In this document: piece by piece, positions 11,137 to 60,161 of the stretch | Layout of the letters: every line of letters begins with the position of its first letter | Numbering within the stretch: position 1 is the first letter of the stretch | Sequence record: MK373778.1 | Direction: 5' to 3' (one strand) | Origin: Escherichia phage vB_EcoM_WFbE185 | DNA length: 64,000 nucleotides | Notes under the pieces: model-generated | What the model was told of the DNA's origin: nothing | What the model saw: the letters and a program-made list of their open reading frames with translations, nothing else | Databases searched by the model: none | Made by a program: the position numbers and the translations under genes

Positions 11137-12705
11137 ATGACTACTATCAAAACTAAAGCTCAGCTCGTAGACAAATGGAAAGAACTGCTGGAAGGTGAAG
11201 GCCTGCCGGAAATCGCTAATAGCAAGCAGGCTATTATCGCTAAAATCTTCGAAAACCAGGAAAAAGATTTCGAAGTATCCCCTGAATATAAAGACGAGAA
11301 AATCGCTCAGGCATTTGGTTCTTTCTTGACCGAAGCTGAAATTGGTGGTGACCATGGTTATAATGCTCAGAACATCGCAGCAGGTCAAACCTCTGGTGCA
11401 GTAACCCAAATTGGGCCGGCAGTTATGGGTATGGTTCGTCGTGCTATTCCTAATCTGATCGCTTTTGATATTTGTGGTGTTCAGCCTATGAACAGCCCTA
11501 CCGGTCAGGTATTTGCTCTCCGTGCAGTATATGGTAAAGACCCTATCGCTGCTGGCGCTAAAGAAGCTTTCCATCCGATGTATGCCCCAGACGCGATGTT
11601 CTCTGGTCAGGGTGCTGCTAAGAAATTCCCAGCTCTGGCTGCTGACACTACTACTGTTGTAGGTGATATCTATACTCACTTCTTCCAAGAAACTGGTACT
11701 GTATATCTGCAAGCTTCTGCTGTCGTAACACTTGATTCTGGTGCAACTGATGCAGCTAAATTAGATGCAGAAGTTAAGAAACAAATGGAAGCTGGTGCAC
11801 TGGTAGAAATCGCTGAAGGTATGGCTACTTCTATCGCTGAACTTCAGGAAGGTTTCAACGGTTCTACCGATAACCCATGGAATGAAATGGGCTTCCGTAT
11901 CGATAAACAAGTTATCGAAGCTAAATCTCGCCAGCTGAAAGCTGCTTACTCTATCGAATTAGCACAAGACCTCCGTGCAGTACACGGTATGGATGCTGAT
12001 GCTGAACTGAGCGGTATTCTGGCTACAGAAATTATGCTAGAAATCAACCGTGAAGTTGTTGATTGGATTAACTACTCAGCACAGGTTGGTAAATCTGGTA
12101 TGACCCTGACTCCTGGTTCTAAAGCTGGTGTATTTGACTTCCAGGACCCGATTGATATCCGTGGTGCTCGTTGGGCCGGTGAAAGCTTTAAATCTCTGTT
12201 GTTCCAGATTGATAAAGAAGCAGTTGAAATTGCTCGTCAAACCGGACGTGGTGAAGGTAACTTCATTATCGCTTCCCGTAACGTAGTTAACGTACTGGCT
12301 TCAGTTGATACTGGTATTTCTTACGCTGCACAGGGTCTGGCTTCTGGTTTTAATACCGACACTACTAAGTCTGTATTTGCCGGTGTACTTGGTGGTAAAT
12401 ACCGCGTATACATCGACCAGTATGCTAAACAGGATTACTTCACCGTTGGTTACAAAGGTGCTAACGAAATGGATGCAGGTATTTACTATGCTCCTTACGT
12501 TGCACTTACCCCACTGCGTGGTTCCGATCCTAAGAACTTCCAGCCGGTAATGGGCTTTAAAACTCGTTACGGTATCGGTGTTAACCCGTTTGCTGAAAGT
12601 TCCCTGCAGGCTCCAGGTGCTCGCATCCAGTCCGGTATGCCGTCTATCCTGAACAGCCTTGGTAAGAACGCTTACTTCCGCCGTGTATATGTAAAAGGCA
12701 TCTAA
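11137..12705 (+). CDS. 23: major capsid protein gp23
   Basis: 522 aa, near-identical to recalled T4 gp23 over most of its length. Confidence 0.97.
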   Translation: MTTIKTKAQLVDKWKELLEGEGLPEIANSKQAIIAKIFENQEKDFEVSPEYKDEKIAQAFGSFLTEAEIGGDHGYNAQNIAAGQTSGAVTQIGPAVMGMVRRAIPNLIAFDICGVQPMNSPTGQVFALRAVYGKDPIAAGAKEAFHPMYAPDAMFSGQGAAKKFPALAADTTTVVGDIYTHFFQETGTVYLQASAVVTLDSGATDAAKLDAEVKKQMEAGALVEIAEGMATSIAELQEGFNGSTDNPWNEMGFRIDKQVIEAKSRQLKAAYSIELAQDLRAVHGMDADAELSGILATEIMLEINREVVDWINYSAQVGKSGMTLTPGSKAGVFDFQDPIDIRGARWAGESFKSLLFQIDKEAVEIARQTGRGEGNFIIASRNVVNVLASVDTGISYAAQGLASGFNTDTTKSVFAGVLGGKYRVYIDQYAKQDYFTVGYKGANEMDAGIYYAPYVALTPLRGSDPKNFQPVMGFKTRYGIGVNPFAESSLQAPGARIQSGMPSILNSLGKNAYFRRVYVKGI

Positions 12706-14443: not shown

Positions 14444-15442
14444 TTATGATACTAATTCAATCCATGCAGGACGCAGAACATCTTGCACCATTCGGACTAA
14501 TTCTTTCTTAACAAGATTCGGATTATCGGATGATGTTAATACAATACCTTCACGAGAAGTTTCTTCCAGAATATCTTGAACAGTCAATCCCATCACTTTG
14601 CCAAAATCTTTTGGCGTTACAGTCCCAATCTTAGAAATCACATTATTAACACGGTTTAATGTAACATAACAAGCTAGGACATCAAGCAAGTTTTTGTCAA
14701 TTTCGGTTAATGGAACCTGAGTTTTAATAGGCTTATCAGACTTTTTCTTTTCACTGAATTTAGAGTTCTTGCACTTAATAGCTACACGAGTACCGTTTGG
14801 CAGCCATTTAGGGAAACAAGGCTTCAGAACATAACCTTCTGCTGTATTATCGCCAATAACATTAGCATCAAATACACAATTATTTGCTTCTACAAGGTCT
14901 TCTGACGCAGTAGCATTATAAGCGGCTAAGACGGAATCAAGGTCATTTGGAATCGCGATAAGAGCATCGAATGTTCCACGACCGAGCATTGGTGCCATTT
15001 TAAAACCGAATTCATTACAGAAATCTTGCATTTCGTAATCGGTCAAATACGTATTATCACCACTTTCTGTATTGATAAGGATATCGAACACATAAAAATC
15101 TTTTTCACCGTAGTCAACACCTTTCTGGATTCCACCACCAGCGAATTCACCAAAGACCTGATATGATACAGCTCGAGAACTACCCATTACTTCTTGAACG
15201 TTTTTAATAGCCTTATCATACTTCTTGAGTACAATTTCATAACCATAAAAATCTTCTGCTGGAAGAATAGGGCCTGTGCGCTTGGCGCATGTGACGTTGT
15301 CACGTTCAATTATTAACGAGAAGTTAGTCCCATGGATTTTCTCACGTGCTACCCAAACACCAGTAGTCAAACCATTAGTGTAGAGTTTTTCAATAAACTT
15401 AGAGTTGTAGTGGTTTTCAAGACTGCTGTATTTCTTAAACAT
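14444..15442 (-). CDS. rnlB: RNA ligase 2
   Basis: 332 aa; [21 protein letters not shown]... with motif I KIHGTN matches recalled T4 Rnl2. Confidence 0.9.
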
Positions 15443-15533
15443 AAATCACCATTATAAATAATAATATCAAAATAATTAGCAGAGACTCTATCTCTGACCG
15501 GATGTTTAATTTGAATGGATAGAACCTAGATTC

Positions 15534-15559
15534 ATTATACCATCAAAAATTGTAAAGCA
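15534..15559 (-). promoter_or_regulatory. middle promoter (MotA box + -10) for rnlB
   Basis: Minus strand reads TGCTTTA, 13 nt, TATAAT. Confidence 0.5.
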
Positions 15560-15561
15560 TA

Positions 15562-15813
15562 TTAGAACTTGATTTCTATCCAATGACCATCACGCTGGTC
15601 GTGATTAATTTTGTACTGAAAGCCGTTATCACGAAGCCATTGACCGACTTGTTCAGTTATAGTTAAATCATTCTTTGACGGATAGTATGTAAATTGTGTC
15701 TGGCCTTTGTCAGCGGCTTTCTCTGCCATCGCAGAGAAGTTAGTAATAAAATCACTCAACAAATTAGCTTTAGTGGCCAGAGCCCTTTCTCTTAATTCCT
15801 GTGCAAAACTCAT
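15562..15813 (-). CDS. hypothetical protein (T4 24.2 position)
   Basis: 83-aa ORF; synteny only. Confidence 0.45.
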   Translation of the reverse strand: MSFAQELRERALATKANLLSDFITNFSAMAEKAADKGQTQFTYYPSKNDLTITEQVGQWLRDNGFQYKINHDQRDGHWIEIKF

Positions 15814-18252: not shown

Positions 18253-19767
18253 ATGACTGACATTAAAGTACATTTTCATGATTTTAGTCACGTGCGCATT
18301 GAATGCGACGAAAGTACGTTTTACGAACTTCGTGACTTTTTTAGCTTTGAAGCTGACGGGTATAAATTTAACCCAAAATATCGCTATGGGCAATGGGATG
18401 GTAGAATTCGACTTTTAGATTACAATCGTTTGTTACCATATGGACTTGTAGGACAAATAAAAAAGTTCTGTAACAATATGAGTTATTCTGTATGGATTGA
18501 CCATAAAATCTTTGAGACCGAAGACCTTACCAGGGAAGATTTTGACGCATGGCTTTCTAAACAAGAAATTTATTCAGGCAACGCCAAAATCGAACCGCAT
18601 TGGTATCAAAAAGATGCAGTATATGAAGGACTAGTTAATCGTCGTCGAATTTTAAACCTTCCGACATCAGCAGGTAAATCACTAATCCAAGCACTTTTAG
18701 CTCGGTATTATCTAGAGAACTATGAAGGTAAAATTCTCATTATCGTCCCTACAACAGCATTGACAACCCAGATGGCTAATGATTTTGTTGATTATCGCTT
18801 GTTTAGTCATTCGATGATTAAGAAAATTGGCGGTGGCGCTGATAAAGCGGACAAATCTAAAAATGACGCTCCAATTATTGTTGGCACATGGCAAACTGTA
18901 GTTAAGCAGCCTAAAGAATGGTTCTCTCAGTTCGGTATGATGATGAATGATGAATGCCACTTAGCAACAGGCAAAAGTATTTCTTCAATCATCTCAGGAT
19001 TAAATAATTGCATGTTTAAATTCGGTTTATCTGGCTCATTAAGAGACGGAAAAGCCAATGTAATGCAGTACGTAGGTATGTTCGGTGAAATCTTCCGTCC
19101 TGTTAGCACGTCTAAATTAATGGAAGATGGACAGGTAACTGAGCTTAAGATTAATAGTATTTTCCTTCGTTATCCGGACGAATTCACCACCAAATTAAAA
19201 GGTAAAACATACCAAGAAGAAGTTAAAATTATTACCGGACTAAAACGTCGTACAAAGTGGATTGCTCAACTTTCAGTAAAATTGGCTAAGAAAGACGAGA
19301 ACGCCTTTGTAATGTTTAAACACGTTACACACGGTAAAGAAATATTTGAAGCTATTAAAGAGCTTGGATACGAAAAAGTTTATTACGTATCAGGTGAAGT
19401 TGATACTGAAACACGTAACGCGCTTAAAGTCATGGCAGAAAATGGTAAAGGCATTATTATTGTTGCATCATATGGAGTATTCTCTACTGGTATTTCAGTC
19501 AAGAATCTTCATCATGTTATTTTTGCCCATGGTGTTAAATCAAAAATTATCGTACTTCAAACCGTAGGTCGCGTGCTTCGTAAGCATGGTTCTAAAGCTG
19601 TTGCTACAGTTTGGGATCTCATCGACGATGCAGGTGTAAAACCTAAATCATTAAATACTAAAAAGAAGTATACTCATCTTAATTACTTGTTAAAACACGG
19701 TATTGATCGTATCCAACGTTACGCTGATGAGAAATTTAACTATGTAATGAAAACAATTAATTTATAA
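18253..19767 (+). CDS. uvsW: UvsW RNA-DNA and DNA-DNA helicase
   Basis: 504 aa; helicase motif I LPTSAGKS and motif II MMNDECH; near-identical to recalled T4 UvsW. Confidence 0.95.
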   Translation: MTDIKVHFHDFSHVRIECDESTFYELRDFFSFEADGYKFNPKYRYGQWDGRIRLLDYNRLLPYGLVGQIKKFCNNMSYSVWIDHKIFETEDLTREDFDAWLSKQEIYSGNAKIEPHWYQKDAVYEGLVNRRRILNLPTSAGKSLIQALLARYYLENYEGKILIIVPTTALTTQMANDFVDYRLFSHSMIKKIGGGADKADKSKNDAPIIVGTWQTVVKQPKEWFSQFGMMMNDECHLATGKSISSIISGLNNCMFKFGLSGSLRDGKANVMQYVGMFGEIFRPVSTSKLMEDGQVTELKINSIFLRYPDEFTTKLKGKTYQEEVKIITGLKRRTKWIAQLSVKLAKKDENAFVMFKHVTHGKEIFEAIKELGYEKVYYVSGEVDTETRNALKVMAENGKGIIIVASYGVFSTGISVKNLHHVIFAHGVKSKIIVLQTVGRVLRKHGSKAVATVWDLIDDAGVKPKSLNTKKKYTHLNYLLKHGIDRIQRYADEKFNYVMKTINL

Positions 19768-20026: not shown

Positions 20027-20074
20027 TTAAAAAAAGGCCCGACCTTTTTGGAAGGGCCAAAAACCATAGGCAAA

Positions 20075-20242
20075 AAAGGTAACACTATAGTAAAAGTTGG
20101 GTTTCATTCAATTGCTCTTCTGAACTTTCTGAAACCGGCAATTGTTGGACATAGTTATAACAAGGACCAGGGTGTGCTGGGCCTTTGTCTGTTTCAACAA
20201 CCAATGCAGAATCGATTGGAGTTTTACAGACAACACAAATCT
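20075..20242 (-). CDS. small putative zinc-binding protein (T4 uvsY.-2 position)
   Basis: 55-aa ORF, below the cutoff of the supplied ORF track, found by hand: MSDKICVVCKTP...HPGPCYNY with C-x2-C...H-x3-C spacing; strong SD AGGAGG 5 nt upstream; late promoter upstream. Confidence 0.5.
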
Positions 20243-20281
20243 TATCTGACATGATTGCCTCCTAAGTTGAAATTACATATC

Positions 20282-20289
20282 TATTTATA
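20282..20289 (-). promoter_or_regulatory. late promoter (TATAAATA) for the small zinc-binding ORF
   Basis: Reverse-complement TATAAATA upstream of the ORF at 20075-20242. Confidence 0.45.
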
Positions 20290-20509
20290 CAACTCTCATA
20301 TGCATATCAATGCCCATATCTTTAGAATAAAAATATTCATCAAGATATCCGGCAAACTTCCCTTTAATATAAAGGACGTCTTCGCCACAAGGATGGTCTG
20401 CCAGGATACGAATATCCTGACGACGTAGACGATACTTTTCCATTAAGAATTTAATTTCAGTTTCAAATTCTTCATCATTATTAAAGGCATCTTCAATTGA
20501 ATAACGCAT
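20285..20509 (-). CDS. hypothetical protein (T4 uvsY.-1 position)
   Basis: 74-aa ORF; synteny. Confidence 0.5.
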   Translation of the reverse strand: MRYSIEDAFNNDEEFETEIKFLMEKYRLRRQDIRILADHPCGEDVLYIKGKFAGYLDEYFYSKDMGIDMHMRVV

Positions 20510-20922
20510 TATTGCCCCGCTTCAAATTCTCGCATATCCTGGATATGTTTAAGTGCAAAACTACGAGATTTAACTGCGTCAAGTGCACCACTACAGAACT
20601 CAAGTAAAATTCCCCAGTATTGTAAAGTAGTCTCTATTTTAAGCACATCTTTATCTGCAGCCAGGACAGTTTTCATTTCAGATTTCTCGTATCGGTCCAT
20701 ACTGAATTCATCACCGTCACCTCGTCCTGAGTAGTAGTCTAATCTTGCTTTTAGAGCAGTTTTCTTCTGAGTCTCTATACGCAACATTTCTTTACGAATA
20801 AATGAGTGCTTACGTAGCCATTTGCTGTATAACTTAACATTATTCGCTGTCTCATATTGCAACTTTGTCGTATCAATAGCTAAGTCTGCGTCTAACTCTT
20901 CCTGTAAATCTTCCAGCTTCAT
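20509..20922 (-). CDS. uvsY: UvsY recombination mediator
   Basis: 137 aa from the internal Met at 20922 (MKLEDLQEEL...), matching recalled T4 UvsY; the longer track ORF to 21003 overlaps the promoter and gene 25 end. Confidence 0.9.
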   Translation of the reverse strand: MKLEDLQEELDADLAIDTTKLQYETANNVKLYSKWLRKHSFIRKEMLRIETQKKTALKARLDYYSGRGDGDEFSMDRYEKSEMKTVLAADKDVLKIETTLQYWGILLEFCSGALDAVKSRSFALKHIQDMREFEAGQ

Positions 20923-20977
20923 AATATTCTCTCTTTTAACTAATAATCTCCCGGCTGTATCGGAAGGACCTAAAACC

Positions 20978-21002
20978 ATTATACATAGGTTGTCTTGAAG
21001 CA
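20978..21002 (-). promoter_or_regulatory. middle promoter for uvsY (candidate oriF-type origin promoter)
   Basis: Minus strand reads TGCTTCA, 12 nt, TATAAT in the 25-uvsY intergenic region. Confidence 0.55.
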
Positions 21003-21401
21003 TTACACTCTATTGCTTGATGCTAACTGAAGTTTGATTTGTTCGATATCATCAGGGTTATCTACGACCGAAAATCTAATCTCTACTATAACTGTATAGT
21101 CATCATATACTGGCGTTACACTTACAGAAAGTTTGTCGATGCGCGGCTCATAGTTACGGACGGCTGCCTGGATATTACGCTCAATCGTATCGGCTGTAAG
21201 TGGTGTCATGTTCTCGAAAAGTTCATCAACCAAATCGCATCCAAATTCAGGGTCGAAGGGGCGTGAGCCTTTTCTAGTTGTCACTATGCCAAGAAGACTA
21301 TTTTTAATAGAACGAAGTCCTACAGAACGAGCAACGTCCTTGTTCCAATCCATACGCATTTCTGGATCGATATCTGAATAAAGTTTATTGATATTAGACA
21401 T
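21003..21401 (-). CDS. 25: baseplate wedge protein gp25
   Basis: 132 aa; MSNINKLYSDIDPEMRMDW... matches recalled T4 gp25. Confidence 0.95.
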   Translation of the reverse strand: MSNINKLYSDIDPEMRMDWNKDVARSVGLRSIKNSLLGIVTTRKGSRPFDPEFGCDLVDELFENMTPLTADTIERNIQAAVRNYEPRIDKLSVSVTPVYDDYTVIVEIRFSVVDNPDDIEQIKLQLASSNRV

Positions 21402-22027
21402 TATAGTAACTCAAAGAATTCTTTGAGGCCTCGTATTGTGTGAACGTGTGATGCCCCACATTTGGGACATTTAATAGGGGTTGCCAGATAAATTGATGGC
21501 GATACCAAAAGATTTTTAATATTGATCATGTCATCTTCTGTTATAAGGCCGTAAAGGTCGTTTATTTCTGCTTCAGTTAAATCTTCAACAGGGATGGACT
21601 CTCCATTGACAAAAACGGCCTCAATACATGAAGCAATCATTAATGCGATATTTTTATCGTCAAATAATTTAGGTTGACGGAACTTAATTTTAATACCACT
21701 GAACGAATACCAGGGATCGGCCTGTTCATCTAATTGAGTGTGCAATAAATTCATATAGACTTGAAATGAATGCCCACAGGAACAATTCCAGGTGTGTTCT
21801 TGATTCACTTCACCTAATGAATGTGCCCACAGATTTACCAACAATAACTCGGCTTCTTGTTTAGTCAAGTTTTTAGCATTAGAGCAATTAGTGATAATAT
21901 TGTTCACTGCGGATTCAATAGTATCGGTAGCCCGCGCACCTATGAGTCCTAAATATTCTTTTAAAGTAAAGGCTCTACAATTCACTTCTTTATCGCCTAA
22001 ACGTACGGTAAACGTATATTTGTACAT
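21401..22027 (-). CDS. 26: baseplate hub protein gp26
   Basis: 208 aa; synteny, divergent from gene 51. Confidence 0.9.
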   Translation of the reverse strand: MYKYTFTVRLGDKEVNCRAFTLKEYLGLIGARATDTIESAVNNIITNCSNAKNLTKQEAELLLVNLWAHSLGEVNQEHTWNCSCGHSFQVYMNLLHTQLDEQADPWYSFSGIKIKFRQPKLFDDKNIALMIASCIEAVFVNGESIPVEDLTEAEINDLYGLITEDDMINIKNLLVSPSIYLATPIKCPKCGASHVHTIRGLKEFFELL

Positions 22028-53345: not shown

Positions 53346-53999
53346 TTAATACTTACATGATTTGATTGTTTCTATGAACAATTTCTTAGCAGCATTTCTA
53401 TCGATTTGAAGTATTTTTCGATATGCCTTTAATTTGGTAGAATAATTTTGCCAGACTAAATTGTCAGTGAGTTCGTCGTGCTTATCTATAATATTCAAAA
53501 ACGAGTCTAACAATAAGAAAGTCTCAAATGAAATTATATTGCTTTGTAGCAATTTGAATATGTAGCTCGACTGAACGTTGTTATTATAATCAAATATCTC
53601 TTGAAGCGCACTAACTTCAACTTTCTTACTGAAATAGTAGATGTTACGTACGTCTTCAGCAAACGTCTCTTTAGCTTGTTTGAGACGTCCAATATATTCC
53701 CTATAGAAAACTAATGCATCAGCGTCTGATATCTCACCAATCCATGCGTCTTGGTTAGCAACTAAGTTGCTTATGAATATCAAGGTGAGTTCCTTCAATT
53801 TATATTTCTCTGCTAGTTTTTCAAAGAAATATTTATCTCGGCGTTTTTGATACGCATTATCCGAAACACGCATGCACCAGTTATATTTGATTACGTCATA
53901 CCGACCACCAAAGTGGTTTTTGCACATCAAGTATAGTTTATATACTGATTTACCGTTAATATAACGTTCTCCGTCAGGAGGCATGCGTATTTTAATCAT
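53346..53999 (-). CDS. 59: helicase loader gp59
   Basis: 217 aa; MIKIRMPPDGERYINGKSVYKLYLM... matches recalled T4 gp59. Confidence 0.95.
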   Translation of the reverse strand: MIKIRMPPDGERYINGKSVYKLYLMCKNHFGGRYDVIKYNWCMRVSDNAYQKRRDKYFFEKLAEKYKLKELTLIFISNLVANQDAWIGEISDADALVFYREYIGRLKQAKETFAEDVRNIYYFSKKVEVSALQEIFDYNNNVQSSYIFKLLQSNIISFETFLLLDSFLNIIDKHDELTDNLVWQNYSTKLKAYRKILQIDRNAAKKLFIETIKSCKY

Positions 54000-54675
54000 A
54001 GTTCCATCCAGGCCATTTTGAAGATTTAAGTCTATACGTAACTAGAGATGCAGAAATATTAAAAACATCTGAAACTTCTGTGCATGATGAGTATTTTATA
54101 CCATCAATAATTATAGGTTTTTGTTTTTTAATAGTTCTTTCTTTAGAATGCGGCTTTGAATTTGCTATTCTAAGAGCTTCTTTGGTTGAATCAGGCATCG
54201 GCTTATTCGTTTTTCGCCCTTTTCGGACTTTACTCAAAGCTAATTTATGAGCTTCAGATAGTTTCCTACCCTTATTAGGGGATGGTATTTTTCTTTCTAA
54301 TCTGGTTTTAGATACTTTAGCCTTAGTCTCTTCAGATCTAGGTTTCCCTATTTTAGAAAGTGAAATAGCCCTTTTAGCTTCATCACTTTGTTTTTTACCA
54401 GGGCCACCTTTACCACCTGGAACCAGGTTATAAGTATCAGTTCGCAAAACAAAATCTTCATTAACCAATTCTGCTTCTTTTTTATAGGCGTCCTTGGCAT
54501 TATCATATTCATAAAGAACTTCAGTATAAAAATTTTTTAGCCCGTATTTAGCTTTGGCCGCTAATATAGCGCGACCAGACCCAATATACCAATCTTTCTC
54601 TTTATGTTTTTTGTGTACACCTATATAAATTTTACCATTTATTTTATTGGTAGTTTTATACACAACGTATTTCAT
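53992..54675 (-). CDS. GIY-YIG homing endonuclease (Seg-like, freestanding)
   Basis: 227 aa; VYKTTNKINGKIYIGVHKK...WYIGSG GIY-YIG module plus NUMOD-like basic repeats; start overlaps gp33 stop (ATGA), stop overlaps gp59 start. Confidence 0.8.
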   Translation of the reverse strand: MKYVVYKTTNKINGKIYIGVHKKHKEKDWYIGSGRAILAAKAKYGLKNFYTEVLYEYDNAKDAYKKEAELVNEDFVLRTDTYNLVPGGKGGPGKKQSDEAKRAISLSKIGKPRSEETKAKVSKTRLERKIPSPNKGRKLSEAHKLALSKVRKGRKTNKPMPDSTKEALRIANSKPHSKERTIKKQKPIIIDGIKYSSCTEVSDVFNISASLVTYRLKSSKWPGWNYD

Positions 54676-55264: not shown

Positions 55265-56182
55265 TCAGAATTCATTAATTACACTTGTTAATTTAGAAAG
55301 ACCAGATTTTACAAAATATGAATAAATCTTGCCTTTAGGTTGTTGTTTATATGAGTTATAATACTCTATAATGGTTGAAGCAATATTATCAGGGATATAA
55401 TCAAAATCAATGAGAACCAAATTTTCTTGATACCGTTTATATTCTTCTGCACTTAATAATACTTCAGCTTGAGAACGGTCATTGGCAATTGCTTCAATAA
55501 TCGATGTTTTCATGCTCGGAGTTCGTTCACCATCAACTCTGGTAAACCAGAAGTCGCCACGAACTCGAACAGATGCAACACCATCCTTACGGTCACCTTT
55601 AAGAATTTTAGTCATGCAATCAATTTCAGCAGAACCATTCTTAATTTTAACCCATTTTTTCTGTGGTGGCGACCACTGTTTAACGTTAGGATATTTGTGT
55701 AATTGTGTAAAGTCACCATCTGATGCAACAATACATACTTTATGTCCAGCTAATGACAAATATTTAGTTAATACACCGATATGGTCATCCGCTTCATACT
55801 TGTCAATATCCATTACAACGTATGGCATGTATTTCTTAATCTCATCAACAACTTGATGGAGTGCAGTAAAATATCCTTCCCAATCCCACTTTGAAGCTTC
55901 ACGATCGGTTTTACGATTTTTCTTGTAATAGTAAGCAAAGTCACGACGCCAATAACCCGAAGTAGCATTATCCATACACAATACAAATTTTGTATAGCCT
56001 TGCTTACGGAACATCACTACGTTTTTACGAATTGAATTCAAGATTACATGGCGAACCATCGGAACGGTAATTTTATCGCCGTCTTCAAAGTTGTTTAATG
56101 CGGCTGCCAATGCAATGTTACTAAAGTCAGCAAGTGCAATACCTTCTTTGTAATCTTCATCCAACATCATTTCTAGATCCAT
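55265..56182 (-). CDS. rnh: RNase H (5'-3' exonuclease, FEN family)
   Basis: 305 aa; synteny before gene 34; early promoter upstream. Confidence 0.9.
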   Translation of the reverse strand: MDLEMMLDEDYKEGIALADFSNIALAAALNNFEDGDKITVPMVRHVILNSIRKNVVMFRKQGYTKFVLCMDNATSGYWRRDFAYYYKKNRKTDREASKWDWEGYFTALHQVVDEIKKYMPYVVMDIDKYEADDHIGVLTKYLSLAGHKVCIVASDGDFTQLHKYPNVKQWSPPQKKWVKIKNGSAEIDCMTKILKGDRKDGVASVRVRGDFWFTRVDGERTPSMKTSIIEAIANDRSQAEVLLSAEEYKRYQENLVLIDFDYIPDNIASTIIEYYNSYKQQPKGKIYSYFVKSGLSKLTSVINEF

Positions 56183-56285: not shown

Positions 56286-59200
56286 ATGGCCGACATCAAA
56301 CGTAAGTTCAGAGCCGAAGACGGTCTGGACGCCGGTGGCGACAAGATTGTTAACGTAGCATTAGCCGACCGTACAGTAGGTACTGATGGCGTAAACGTTG
56401 ACTTCCTGGTACAAGAAAACACCGTTCAAGTATATGATTCTACGCGTGGATATAACAAAGGATTTGTTGTTCTTTATGACAACCGTTTATATCAAGCAAT
56501 AAATGATATCGTGTCTCCTTCCGGGGCATTTAACCTTTTACAATGGCGTGCAGTTCGTACTGATGCACAATGGATAACTGTCGCTTCTGGGACTTATCAA
56601 CTTTCTTCAGGTGAATCTATTTCGGTTAACACTGGTGCCGGTAATGATATGGTTTTCACGTTGCCAAATACGCCGGTTGATGGTGATACTGTTGTTTTGG
56701 CTGATATTGGTGGAAGAACCGGGACAGTTAAAGTACAGATTAACGCGTCTGTTCAGAGTATTTTAAACTTTAGAGGTGAACAAGTTCGTACAGTTTTAAT
56801 GACGCGCCCACGTTCACAACTATTGTTTGTGTTTAGTAATCGTTTGTGGCAGATGTATATTACCGATTATGGTAAAGAATCAATCACTGTTACACCTGCG
56901 TCACCATATCAAGCACAAGCAAATGATTTTATCGTTAGTCGTTTTACTAGTGCAGCACCAATCAACATTACACTTCCACGTAATGCTAACAATGGTGATA
57001 TAATCAGCCTAGTCGATTTAGATAGATTAAACCCACTGTATCATACAATTGTTAAAACATTTGATGATACAACGTCTATTGGTGAAGTCGGGACTCATAT
57101 TGCCGAAGGCAGAAATGACTCTGACGCGTTTTTTGTTTTTGATGCTGCAAATAGTTTATGGCGTATATGGGAAGGCGACCAGAAATCGCGTCTTCGTATT
57201 ATCCGTGCGGATTCAAATATTCGTCCAAATGAAGAAGTTCTTATTTTTGGCACAAATAACGCTACAGCCGGAACTATTAATCTTACGCTGCCTTCCGGAA
57301 TTTTGAGTGGTGACACTGTTAAAATTTCAATGAACTACATGCGTAAAGGCCAAACAGTAAAAATTAAAGCTGCCGAAGGTGATACAATTGCTTCTTCTGT
57401 TGCATTGCTTCAGTTCCCTAAACGTTCTGAATATCCACCTGATGCTCAATGGGTCTCTGTTACTGAACTAGAATTCAATGGCACTACTTCATATGTTCCT
57501 GTATTAGAATTAGCGTATATCGAAGACACCGTTGCTGGTACACGTTATTGGGTCGTTCAACAAAACGTCCCTACGGTAGAACGTGTTGATGCTGGAACTG
57601 ATGCTACACGAGCTCGTTTAGGTGTTATTGCTCTTGCTACTCAAGCGCAAGCAAATGTTGATTTAGAGAATACTCCGGCTAAAGAAGTGGCTATTACTCC
57701 TGAAACGTTGGCAAATCGTACAGCAACTGAAGCTCGACGTGGTATCGCTAAAATTGCTACAACAGCACAAGTTAACCAGAATTCCACAGCAACATTTGTG
57801 GACGATACTATTGTTACGCCTAAAAAACTAAATGAGCGTACAGCAACTGAAACTCGTCGCGGTCTTGCTGAAATTGCTACTCAGGCTGAAACCGATGCTG
57901 GTCTTGATGACACAACGATTATTACGCCTAAGAAATTACAGGCCCGTCAGGGTTCTGAAACACTATCTGGTATAGTTAAATATGTATCAACTACTTCTGC
58001 TACTCCTGCTGAAACTCGTGGTACCGCAGGCACTAACGTTTATAATAAAACTGTAAATAATTTAACTATTTCTCCTAAAGCCCTTGACCAATATAAAGCA
58101 ACTTATGCTCAACAAGGTGCAGTAATTTTAGCTGTCGATAGTGAAGTAATTGCTGGTCAATCCCAAGCAGGTTATTCTCATGCTGTAGTAACTCCTGAAA
58201 CACTACATAAGAAAACTTCTACTGATGGACGTATTGGTTTAATTGAAATTGCTACGCAAGCAGAAACTAATGCTGGGACTGATTATACACGTGCAGTAAC
58301 ACCTAAGACGTTAAATGATAGGAAAGCTACGGAAGGATTATCCGGCATAGCCGAACTTGCTACGCAAGTCGAATTTGATACTGGAACTGATGATACTCGT
58401 ATCTCGACTCCACTGAAAATTAAAACTCATTTTGATTCTTCTGACCGTACCAGTGTTAATTCTGATTCCGGACTTATTGAAGAAGGAACCTTGTGGAACC
58501 ATTATACTCTTGATATTTCTAAAGCAAATGAAACACAACGTGGTACACTTCGCGTAGCGACTCAGGCAGAATCTAATGCAGGAACTTTAGATGATGTTCT
58601 TATTACTCCTAAAAAGCTTTTAGGGACTAAGTCCACTGAAACGTCTGAAGGCGTAATTAAGGTTGCTACTCAGGCTGAAACTGTAACAGGAACTTCTGCT
58701 AATACCGCTGTATCGCCTAAGAATTTAAAATGGATTGTCCAGTCTGAACCAACATGGGCTGCTACTACAGCAATTCGTGGATTCGTTAAAACTTCATCCG
58801 GTTCTATTACATTCGTTGGTAATGATACAGTTGGTTCAACACAACCTTTAGAATCATATGAAAAAAATAGCTATGCTATATCTCCATATGAATTAAACCG
58901 TGTACTTGCTAACTATTTGCCATTAAAAGCAAAAGCTGCTGACGCAAATTTATTAGATGGTCTAGATTCATCTCAGTTCATTCGTAGGGACATTGCACAG
59001 ACGGTTAATGGTTCACTAACCTTAACCCAACAAACGAATCTGAGTGCCCCTCTTGTATCAACTAGTACTGCTACGTTTGGTGGTTCAGTTTCGGCAAATA
59101 GTACATTAACTATTTCTAACTCTGGAACAGCTACTCGTCTGATTTTTGAAAAAGGACCTCAAACTGGAACTAACCCAGCACAGACGATGACTATCAGAGT

Positions 59201-60161
59201 TTGGGGAAATGAATTTGGTGGTGGTTCAGATACAACACGTTCTACTGTATTTGAAGTTGGTGATGAAACATCTAATCACTTTTATTCTCAACGTAATAAA
59301 GCCGGGAATATAACGTTTAGTATCAATGGTACTGTGATGCCAATAAATGTTAACGCTTCAGGCACGTTAAATGCGAATGGCATTGCAACATTTGGACGTT
59401 CAGTTACAGCCAATGGCGAATTCATTAGCAAGTCTGCAAATGCTTTCAGAGCAATTGGTGGTGATTACGGATTCTTTATTCGCAATGATGGCGGCAGCAC
59501 ATATTTTATGCTTACTGCATCTGGTGATCAGACAGGTGGATTTAATGGATTACGTCCATTATCAATTAATAATCAATCCGGACAAGTTACGATTGGTGAA
59601 AGCTTAATCATTGCCAAAGGTGCTACTATAAATTCTGGCGGTTTGACTGTTAACTCAAGAATTCGTTCTCAGGGTACTAAAACATCCGATTTATATACCC
59701 GTGCGCCAACATCTGATAATGTAGGATTCTGGTCAATTGATATTAACGATTCAGCCACTTATAACCAGTTCCCAGGTTATTTTAAAATGGTTGAAAAAAC
59801 TAATGAAGTGACTGGGCTTCCATACTTAGAACGTGGCGAAGAAGTTAAATCTCCTGGTACACTGACTCAGTTTGGTAACACACTTGATTCACTTTACCAA
59901 GATTGGATTACTTATCCAACAACCCCAGAAGCACGTACAACCCGTTGGACTCGTACATGGCAGAAAACTAAAAATTCTTGGTCAAGTTTTGTTCAAGTAT
60001 TTGATGGGGGTAACCCTCCTCAGCCATCTGATATTGGTGCTTTACCTTCTGATAATGCAACAATCGGAAACTTGACAATAAGGGATTTCTTAAGGATTGG
60101 TAATGTCCGCATTATTCCAGACCCTGTGAATAAATCTGTTAAATTCGAGTGGATTGAATAA
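56286..60161 (+). CDS. 34: long tail fiber proximal subunit gp34
   Basis: 1291 aa with the characteristic repeated ATPxxL / IATQAE motifs; late promoter upstream. Confidence 0.95.
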   Translation: MADIKRKFRAEDGLDAGGDKIVNVALADRTVGTDGVNVDFLVQENTVQVYDSTRGYNKGFVVLYDNRLYQAINDIVSPSGAFNLLQWRAVRTDAQWITVASGTYQLSSGESISVNTGAGNDMVFTLPNTPVDGDTVVLADIGGRTGTVKVQINASVQSILNFRGEQVRTVLMTRPRSQLLFVFSNRLWQMYITDYGKESITVTPASPYQAQANDFIVSRFTSAAPINITLPRNANNGDIISLVDLDRLNPLYHTIVKTFDDTTSIGEVGTHIAEGRNDSDAFFVFDAANSLWRIWEGDQKSRLRIIRADSNIRPNEEVLIFGTNNATAGTINLTLPSGILSGDTVKISMNYMRKGQTVKIKAAEGDTIASSVALLQFPKRSEYPPDAQWVSVTELEFNGTTSYVPVLELAYIEDTVAGTRYWVVQQNVPTVERVDAGTDATRARLGVIALATQAQANVDLENTPAKEVAITPETLANRTATEARRGIAKIATTAQVNQNSTATFVDDTIVTPKKLNERTATETRRGLAEIATQAETDAGLDDTTIITPKKLQARQGSETLSGIVKYVSTTSATPAETRGTAGTNVYNKTVNNLTISPKALDQYKATYAQQGAVILAVDSEVIAGQSQAGYSHAVVTPETLHKKTSTDGRIGLIEIATQAETNAGTDYTRAVTPKTLNDRKATEGLSGIAELATQVEFDTGTDDTRISTPLKIKTHFDSSDRTSVNSDSGLIEEGTLWNHYTLDISKANETQRGTLRVATQAESNAGTLDDVLITPKKLLGTKSTETSEGVIKVATQAETVTGTSANTAVSPKNLKWIVQSEPTWAATTAIRGFVKTSSGSITFVGNDTVGSTQPLESYEKNSYAISPYELNRVLANYLPLKAKAADANLLDGLDSSQFIRRDIAQTVNGSLTLTQQTNLSAPLVSTSTATFGGSVSANSTLTISNSGTATRLIFEKGPQTGTNPAQTMTIRVWGNEFGGGSDTTRSTVFEVGDETSNHFYSQRNKAGNITFSINGTVMPINVNASGTLNANGIATFGRSVTANGEFISKSANAFRAIGGDYGFFIRNDGGSTYFMLTASGDQTGGFNGLRPLSINNQSGQVTIGESLIIAKGATINSGGLTVNSRIRSQGTKTSDLYTRAPTSDNVGFWSIDINDSATYNQFPGYFKMVEKTNEVTGLPYLERGEEVKSPGTLTQFGNTLDSLYQDWITYPTTPEARTTRWTRTWQKTKNSWSSFVQVFDGGNPPQPSDIGALPSDNATIGNLTIRDFLRIGNVRIIPDPVNKSVKFEWIE

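Follow-up and report, generated by a model that had tools for sequence, protein, structure and literature searches.

From our comparison of the window, the whole 64-kb stretch of DNA analysed here, with T4 and related phages, we propose that the minus-strand junction between gene 25 and uvsY carries the Mosigvirus orthologue of both the T4 uvsY middle promoter and the T4 replication origin oriF, a combined reading to which we assign a probability of roughly 0.5. The first component, a MotA/AsiA-dependent middle promoter, is very likely present. Whether the site has a further role as an origin is close to an even bet: this part of the reading is plausible, it draws on positional orthology and on the trans-acting proteins that are encoded in the window, and it is neither supported nor refuted by the sequence. 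If the origin role is true, T-even phages as a group would have kept R-loop origins, which would then be more than a T4 curiosity. The promoter role alone would be that of an expected and previously predicted regulatory element of the recombination gene uvsY.

The window belongs to a Mosigvirus, that is, an RB69-like T-even phage. Positions 20400..21500 are 99.0-99.4% identical to many Mosigvirus genomes (vB_EQ1, AV110, HX01 and others) and ~72% identical to T4; AV110 is 99.3% identical to the window. The genes are ordered uvsW (plus strand), uvsW.1, then uvsY.-2, uvsY.-1, uvsY, 25 and 26 (minus strand), then 51 (plus strand), and the arrangement around uvsY in T4 is the same. The earlier note had named gp25 and UvsY as the flanking products and had placed UvsW in the window, which the Pfam matches bear out. 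The features of this neighbourhood are:

18253..19767, plus strand, uvsW helicase (Pfam UvsW_N, PF21241, E 8e-46, plus helicase domains)
20029..20058, minus strand, intrinsic terminator GGCCCTTCC-AAAA-AGGTCGGGCC followed by seven T, from the sequence
20085..20252, minus strand, uvsY.-2, third gene of the uvsY unit (Pfam DUF2685, E 9.9e-32)
20285..20509, minus strand, uvsY.-1, second gene of the uvsY transcription unit (ORF list; synteny with T4 and RB69)
20509..20922, minus strand, uvsY, recombination mediator, 137-aa form from MKLEDLQEEL (Pfam UvsY, PF11056, E 1.1e-48)
21003..21401, minus strand, gene 25, baseplate wedge, 132 aa (ORF list; Pfam GPW_gp25, PF04965, E 4.8e-19)

The window uvsY aligns with T4 uvsY, and positions 1-128 of the Pfam UvsY model fall on residues 9-137 of the 137-aa form. 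The terminator marks the end of the uvsY unit and lies between the convergent genes uvsY.-2 and uvsW.1; RB69 and SA79RD have an annotated terminator at the equivalent position.

The gap between gene 25 and uvsY (20923..21003, minus strand) is itself an open reading frame in phase with uvsY, and in RB69 and several Mosigvirus records a 164-aa UvsY is annotated from an ATG at 21003 that overlaps the gene 25 stop. We rejected this longer start: KAW3E185 has a 1-nt deletion that disrupts the frame, and the Pfam UvsY model begins at, and fits, the 137-aa form. The 164-aa UvsY is probably an annotation artefact.

Read along the minus strand, the 25/uvsY junction has the sequence AGAGTG-TAA-TGCTTCA-AGACAACCTATG-TATAAT-GGTTTTAGGTCCTTCC. 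The motif reported in the earlier note, TGCTTCA and TATAAT separated by 12 nt, was thus found again, at 21002..20996 and 20983..20978. The elements of the junction are:

21005..21003, minus strand, gene 25 stop codon TAA, whose three bases open the MotA box
20996..21005, minus strand, MotA box TAATGCTTCA, a 10/10 match to the consensus and identical to the T4 PuvsY box
21002..20996, minus strand, TGCTTCA, from the sequence
20984..20995, minus strand, 12-nt spacer AGACAACCTATG, which varies among Mosigviruses (A/G at two positions)
20978..20983, minus strand, sigma-70 -10 hexamer TATAAT, invariant in all nine genera compared
20962..20977, minus strand, conserved block GGTTTT followed by AGGTCCTTCC, running from the discriminator into the initial transcribed region (cross-genus consensus; PWM scan)
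20935..20929, minus strand, uvsY ribosome-binding site AAGAGAG, within the AT-rich segment 20898..20947
20922, minus strand, uvsY ATG

In T4-type middle promoters the MotA box has the consensus (a/t)(a/t)(a/t)TGCTT(t/c)A (PMC2988021), is centred near -30 and is separated by 12 +/- 1 bp from the excellent sigma-70 -10 sequence, TAtaaT, that follows it. The distance of 12 nt and the perfect -10 hexamer of the window site agree with this spacing. A scan for sigma-70 -35/-10 pairs did not call the 25/uvsY site, since it found no -35 there; the missing -35 fits a MotA-type promoter. The TGn of an extended -10 is also absent from the uvsY promoter of the window. In the whole window the pattern TGCTTYA-N11-13-TANNNT has 12 matches against 1.89 expected, and 100 dinucleotide shuffles gave no count as high. 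The minus strand holds 11 of these matches. This six-fold enrichment of the motif class points to a putative MotA regulon. The genes motA and asiA lie outside the 64-kb window, and their presence is presumed from relatives: RB69 has orthologues of both (motA, E 5e-48), and gp95 of AV110 is a MotA-like regulator.

The earlier note had named alignment with T4 ori(uvsY) as a check. In a pairwise alignment, the window motif falls on TAATGCTTCA-13 nt-TATAAT of T4. T4 PuvsY/oriF (115.3 kb), also called ori(uvsY), occupies the same gap between genes 25 and uvsY; its MotA box is identical to that of the window and likewise overlaps the gene 25 stop, its -10 hexamer and start-site register are shared, its initial transcribed block AAGTCCATCC is related to AGGTCCTTCC, and the downstream genes and the convergent uvsW are the same. 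The two sites differ in the spacer, which has 13 nt with a TGn extended -10 in T4 but 12 nt without TGn in the window. T4 PuvsY is MotA-dependent by experiment (PMC3016281, PMC2988021), and its start has been mapped at 115371 (Table 1, PMC2988021), the seventh base after the hexamer. From the register with this mapped start, the window transcript is predicted to begin at A20971. The T4 RefSeq record places oriF at 115321, which is +51, with the note 'primer RNA is same as transcript for gene uvsY'.

Within RB69-type phages the same promoter has been found before. It was predicted independently in RB69 as Pm:117605, with a low HMM score of 8.1 (Nolan 2006, Additional file 4), and in SA79RD (GenBank OL960576, Mosigvirus) it is annotated as 'similar to phage T4 middle promoter'. 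Both are the window element except for one or two spacer bases, and both sources describe a promoter only, without an origin claim. Predicted and annotated by others as it is, the uvsY promoter is an ordinary, expected orthologue that will not surprise a T4 specialist. We further compared 25/uvsY junctions from nine genera, namely Mosigvirus, Tequatrovirus, Gelderlandvirus, Karamvirus, Tegunavirus, Gaprivervirus, Marfavirus, Winklervirus and Moonvirus. In all nine, a GCTT-type box is followed 12-13 nt later by TATAAT, which is invariant, and the cross-genus consensus is TATAAT GGTTyT aG.TCCTT, after which the leader is unconserved. As the gap is non-coding, this conservation shows function. 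The claim of a MotA-type middle promoter upstream of uvsY is well supported, by the alignment with mapped T4 PuvsY, the conservation across nine genera, the independent RB69 prediction and the SA79RD annotation.

The motif is short, and TATAAT-like hexamers are abundant in AT-rich genomes, so a match by chance and without function has to be considered; yet only ~0.002 matches are expected within the 80-bp 25/uvsY gap, the position is identical in T4, and the element is kept in a non-coding gap in nine genera, a conservation that effectively refutes this reading. It is also very improbable that the GCTT box is incidental and that TATAAT and the downstream block function either as a -10 promoter of the host type or together with another factor. 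Such a MotA-independent promoter would account for the departure of the box from consensus in several genera (CGCTTTC in S16 and PG7, TGCTTAT in fHe-Yen9-01) that nevertheless keep TATAAT and the +1 block unchanged; MotA is moreover known to accept boxes with many departures from consensus, and the contribution of the -10 equals or exceeds that of the box (PMC2988021). Against it, the window box is the full 10/10 match shared with T4, neither a -35 nor a TGn is there to support sigma-70 alone, dependence of T4 PuvsY on MotA is experimental, and the motif class is both enriched and strand-biased in the window. A MotA/AsiA-dependent promoter is the reading that we retain for the uvsY site.

The origin component concerns the DNA downstream of this promoter. 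In T4, oriF and oriG each have a middle-mode promoter within a minimal element of ~100 bp, as reviewed by Kreuzer and Brister (PMC3016281). T4 oriF consists of the promoter plus a ~50-bp downstream unwinding element (DUE), which needs no specific sequence and for which heterologous elements can substitute, and the persistent R-loop at oriF and oriG is independent of specific sequence (PMC3016281). RNase H is thought to process the R-loop RNA into a primer, UvsW unwinds origin R-loops late in infection, and the T4 origins are shut off by the end of middle transcription together with UvsW (PMC3016281). What the earlier note had said about T4 oriF, its R-loop and UvsW agrees with this review. A promoter of the kind that drives oriF and oriG is present at the uvsY site, and all four members of the trans-acting set, UvsW, gp59, RNase H and gp32, are encoded in the window (Pfam), two of them as follows:

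53346..53999, minus strand, gene 59, helicase loader, in T4 a trans-acting factor in the firing of R-loop origins (Pfam T4_Gp59_N and T4_Gp59_C)
55265..56182, minus strand, rnh, T4-type RNase H (Pfam RNaseH_C, E 7.5e-60)

The leader of the window can be divided into two parts:

20948..20966, minus strand, GC-rich hairpin CTTCCG-ATACAGC-CGGGAG, +6..+24 of the predicted transcript, Mosigvirus-specific
20898..20947, minus strand, AT-rich and purine-rich segment, +25..+74, candidate unwinding element or R-loop zone (nearest-neighbour dG)

The hairpin is identical in RB69, SA79RD and KAW3E185. T4 has no hairpin at +6..+24, and its leader is already AT-rich there. In the window, by contrast, a GC-rich stretch of 24 bases opens the transcript and AT-richness is confined to +25..+74; the hairpin raises duplex stability where the T4 unwinding element begins. 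Leader GC content is 0.38-0.39 in the window versus 0.30 in T4, and the stretch of low stability extends over ~50 bp in the window versus ~100 bp at T4 oriF. Over 50 bp, the nearest-neighbour dG of +25..+74, a segment that includes the uvsY ribosome-binding site and start codon, is -55.5 kcal/mol, compared with -55.0 at T4 oriF and -55.1 at T4 oriG. The hairpin is followed by ATTATTAGTT and was flagged as terminator-like by a scan; it might attenuate late read-through from gene 25, or be neutral. Apart from this one hairpin, the leader RNA of the window is unstructured. Seven uvsY leaders folded no better than their shuffles (z -0.1 to +1.9) and shared no structure, and an Rfam search of the uvsY leader gave no match; a riboregulator was rejected on these grounds. 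The Mosigvirus leader is a natural variant in which a GC-rich hairpin separates the promoter from the AT-rich patch.

Duplex stability was compared with a genome-wide null, defined as the least stable window in any 120-bp stretch. The uvsY site lies in the 17-21% tail of this null, T4 oriF in the 2-4% tail at 80-100 bp and at 15% at 50 bp, and T4 oriG at ~15%. Within +/-2 kb, the uvsY site is among the 5.5% least stable at 50 bp and the 18.5% least stable at 100 bp, T4 oriF is in the 6-8% tail and T4 oriG in the 0.6-1.5% tail. Over 80-100 bp, the stability of the window region is ordinary, T4 oriF lying in the 2-6% tail. The unwinding element has been retained in part, and the stability comparisons taken together are ambiguous. 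With 28 other T4 middle promoters as a negative control, ranks were assigned among 33 promoters. T4 oriF and oriG ranked 12-25 of 33 on duplex instability and RNA:DNA ddG (12th to 22nd on duplex instability), neither near the top, and the window site ranked 23rd of 33 on duplex instability and 4th of 33 on the ddG of RNA:DNA versus DNA:DNA. The latter value, a thermodynamic R-loop proxy only, is -4.6 to -6.2 kcal/mol for the transcribed region of the window, where the hybrid is favoured more than at T4 oriF. Both measures were rejected as discriminators: they do not separate oriF and oriG from the 28 other T4 middle promoters, and since the proven T4 origins are not distinguished, stability and hybrid measures cannot decide origin status.

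A switch in transcription strand or skew is a feature of oriE, oriF and oriG, not of oriA or oriC. Cumulative GC skew in the window has turning points near 28-29 kb and 59-60 kb and none at 21 kb, and a GC or AT skew turning point at the uvsY site was accordingly rejected as a candidate signal. The divergent 26/51 late-promoter region lies ~1 kb upstream of the uvsY site, as it does in T4. In the literature we found nothing on oriF or origin activity in RB69-type phages.

It is quite possible that the uvsY site is a promoter only, expressing uvsY, uvsY.-1 and uvsY.-2, and that origin activity is a peculiarity of Tequatrovirus (T4) that needs an AT-rich leader. The need for UvsY at middle times fully accounts for conservation of the promoter, and most T4 middle promoters are not origins: only 2 of the ~58 have been proven as plasmid origins (PMC3016281, PMC2988021). 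The ordinary stability over 80-100 bp, the lack of a skew signal and the Mosigvirus GC-rich hairpin at +6..+24 also favour a promoter without further function. Divergence of the leader between genera beyond +10 points the same way, but it is no argument against origin function, because the T4 DUE is not sequence-specific and heterologous replacement works (PMC3016281). Moreover, the window matches T4 in the instability of a 50-bp patch, and the antisense P34i/oriG promoter described below is intact there although it has no gene to express. These last points speak for the Mosigvirus site as an orthologue of oriF as well as of the promoter.

MotA/AsiA-dependent transcription should start at about A20971 and drive uvsY, uvsY.-1 and uvsY.-2 up to the terminator at 20058..20029. 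By orthology with T4 only, part of the transcript would remain annealed to its template at +25..+74 (20947..20898), RNase H would trim this R-loop to yield a primer for leftward leading-strand synthesis, towards uvsW, and gp59 would load the gp41 helicase onto the displaced strand. Late in infection, on the same grounds, the origin would be shut off by the loss of middle transcription and by unwinding of the R-loop by UvsW. The ColE1 RNA II origin and E. coli oriK, which acts in constitutive stable DNA replication, resemble this scheme in that a persistent RNA:DNA hybrid gives rise to a leading-strand primer made by RNase H (PMC3016281). ColE1 differs in its specific folded RNA II and its G-rich/C-rich contact, whereas the window site has no conserved RNA structure. 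The T4-type process, unlike that of ColE1, is controlled by the phage-encoded MotA, gp59 and UvsW.

The second proven R-loop origin of T4, P34i/oriG (PMC3016281), also called ori(34), has a MotA-type promoter that contains TATAATGG and, just past the start, a GGTTCC block. Unlike the uvsY promoter, this one is embedded in antisense orientation in the gene 34 coding region and has no gene to express. Its counterpart in the window is:

58501..58526, minus strand, P34i/oriG orthologue, TTGCTTTA, 13 nt, TATAAT, then GGTTCCACAAGGTTCC, antisense in gene 34 (ORF 56286..60161, plus strand)

This promoter is conserved in seven lineages in all: that of the window, Tequatrovirus, Dhakavirus, Gaprivervirus, Karamvirus, Yersinia phage MHG19 and Acinetobacter phage Ac42. 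A Klebsiella phage has lost it. Its conservation is confounded, because the same stretch of gene 34 encodes a conserved peptide of gp34, GTLW(N/D)HYT. The two codons that make up TATAAT, for His and Tyr, are nonetheless identical in 21 of 21 pairs among the seven lineages, compared with 11-15 of 21 pairs at other two-fold columns, and this invariance is a mild sign of constraint beyond coding. The intact oriG orthologue suggests that the R-loop origin strategy is conserved.

The conserved start region of the uvsY promoter recurs in a small family of middle promoters. The extended cassette consists of a MotA box, 12-13 nt, TATAAT, G(A/G)(A/T)T(C/T)T and then A(A/G)GT(C/T)C(N)TCC. A cassette PWM covering -12..+12 was built from five non-T4 uvsY promoters, and in the complete T4 genome it gave four sites at or above 19 bits against a background of at most 12.7:

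T4, PuvsY/oriF
T4, 53337, minus strand, PnrdC.7
T4, 11885, plus strand, modA/srd gap
T4, 75988, plus strand, gene 3/2 gap

The T4 cassettes are near-identical (MotA box, TATAAT, GRDTCT, then AAGYCC(C)TTCCAT). The published table of 58 middle promoters does not list the sites at 11885 and 75988, which are conserved in ~500 Tequatrovirus records; as they are oriented against all neighbouring genes, they have nothing to express. In the window the PWM scored PuvsY at 34 bits and a site at 15539, in the 24.2/rnlB gap, at 21 bits:

15527..15570, minus strand, second window cassette, ATATGCTTTA, 13 nt, TATAAT, a strong MotA-type promoter

This second cassette falls in the 119-bp gap between 24.2 (15562..15813) and rnlB (14444..15442), a gap that T4 lacks at this place, and corresponds to RB69 Pm:112073. 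Its discriminator and leader, GAATCT followed by AGGTTCTATCCATTC, are nearly identical to GAATCT followed by AAGTCCATCCAAT at T4 oriF; beyond them come a hairpin and, after it, the 50 bp of lowest stability within +/-2 kb (dG -48.2). By the logic of the earlier note, the 15539 site has no weaker claim to be an oriF-like candidate than the uvsY site.

All cassette sites have locally unstable DNA downstream. The idea that a GT(T)CC block after +1 is found at the two T4 origin promoters only was rejected, since it occurs in 3 of the 58 T4 promoters, one of them PnrdB. In PnrdC.7 the cassette has GCCC in place of GT(T)CC; as PnrdC.7 is no known origin and PnrdB has GT(T)CC, the block is not exclusive to origins. 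An association of the extra T4 cassettes with oriA, oriC and oriE was likewise rejected, as they lie 3-6 kb away and the association is weak and post hoc. It is unlikely that the initial transcribed block, and not AT-richness, makes a few middle promoters into persistent-R-loop origins or primer promoters; if it did, the window would hold two or three such origins. The cassette family is an unexplained lead rather than a result. Together with the natural leader variant of Mosigvirus, it offers handles on why only some middle promoters become R-loop origins.

Directly upstream of gene 59, which it overlaps by 8 bp, the window contains a GIY-YIG/NUMOD3 homing-endonuclease-like ORF (53992..54675, minus strand). 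In T4, by contrast, segG is found between genes 32 and 59.
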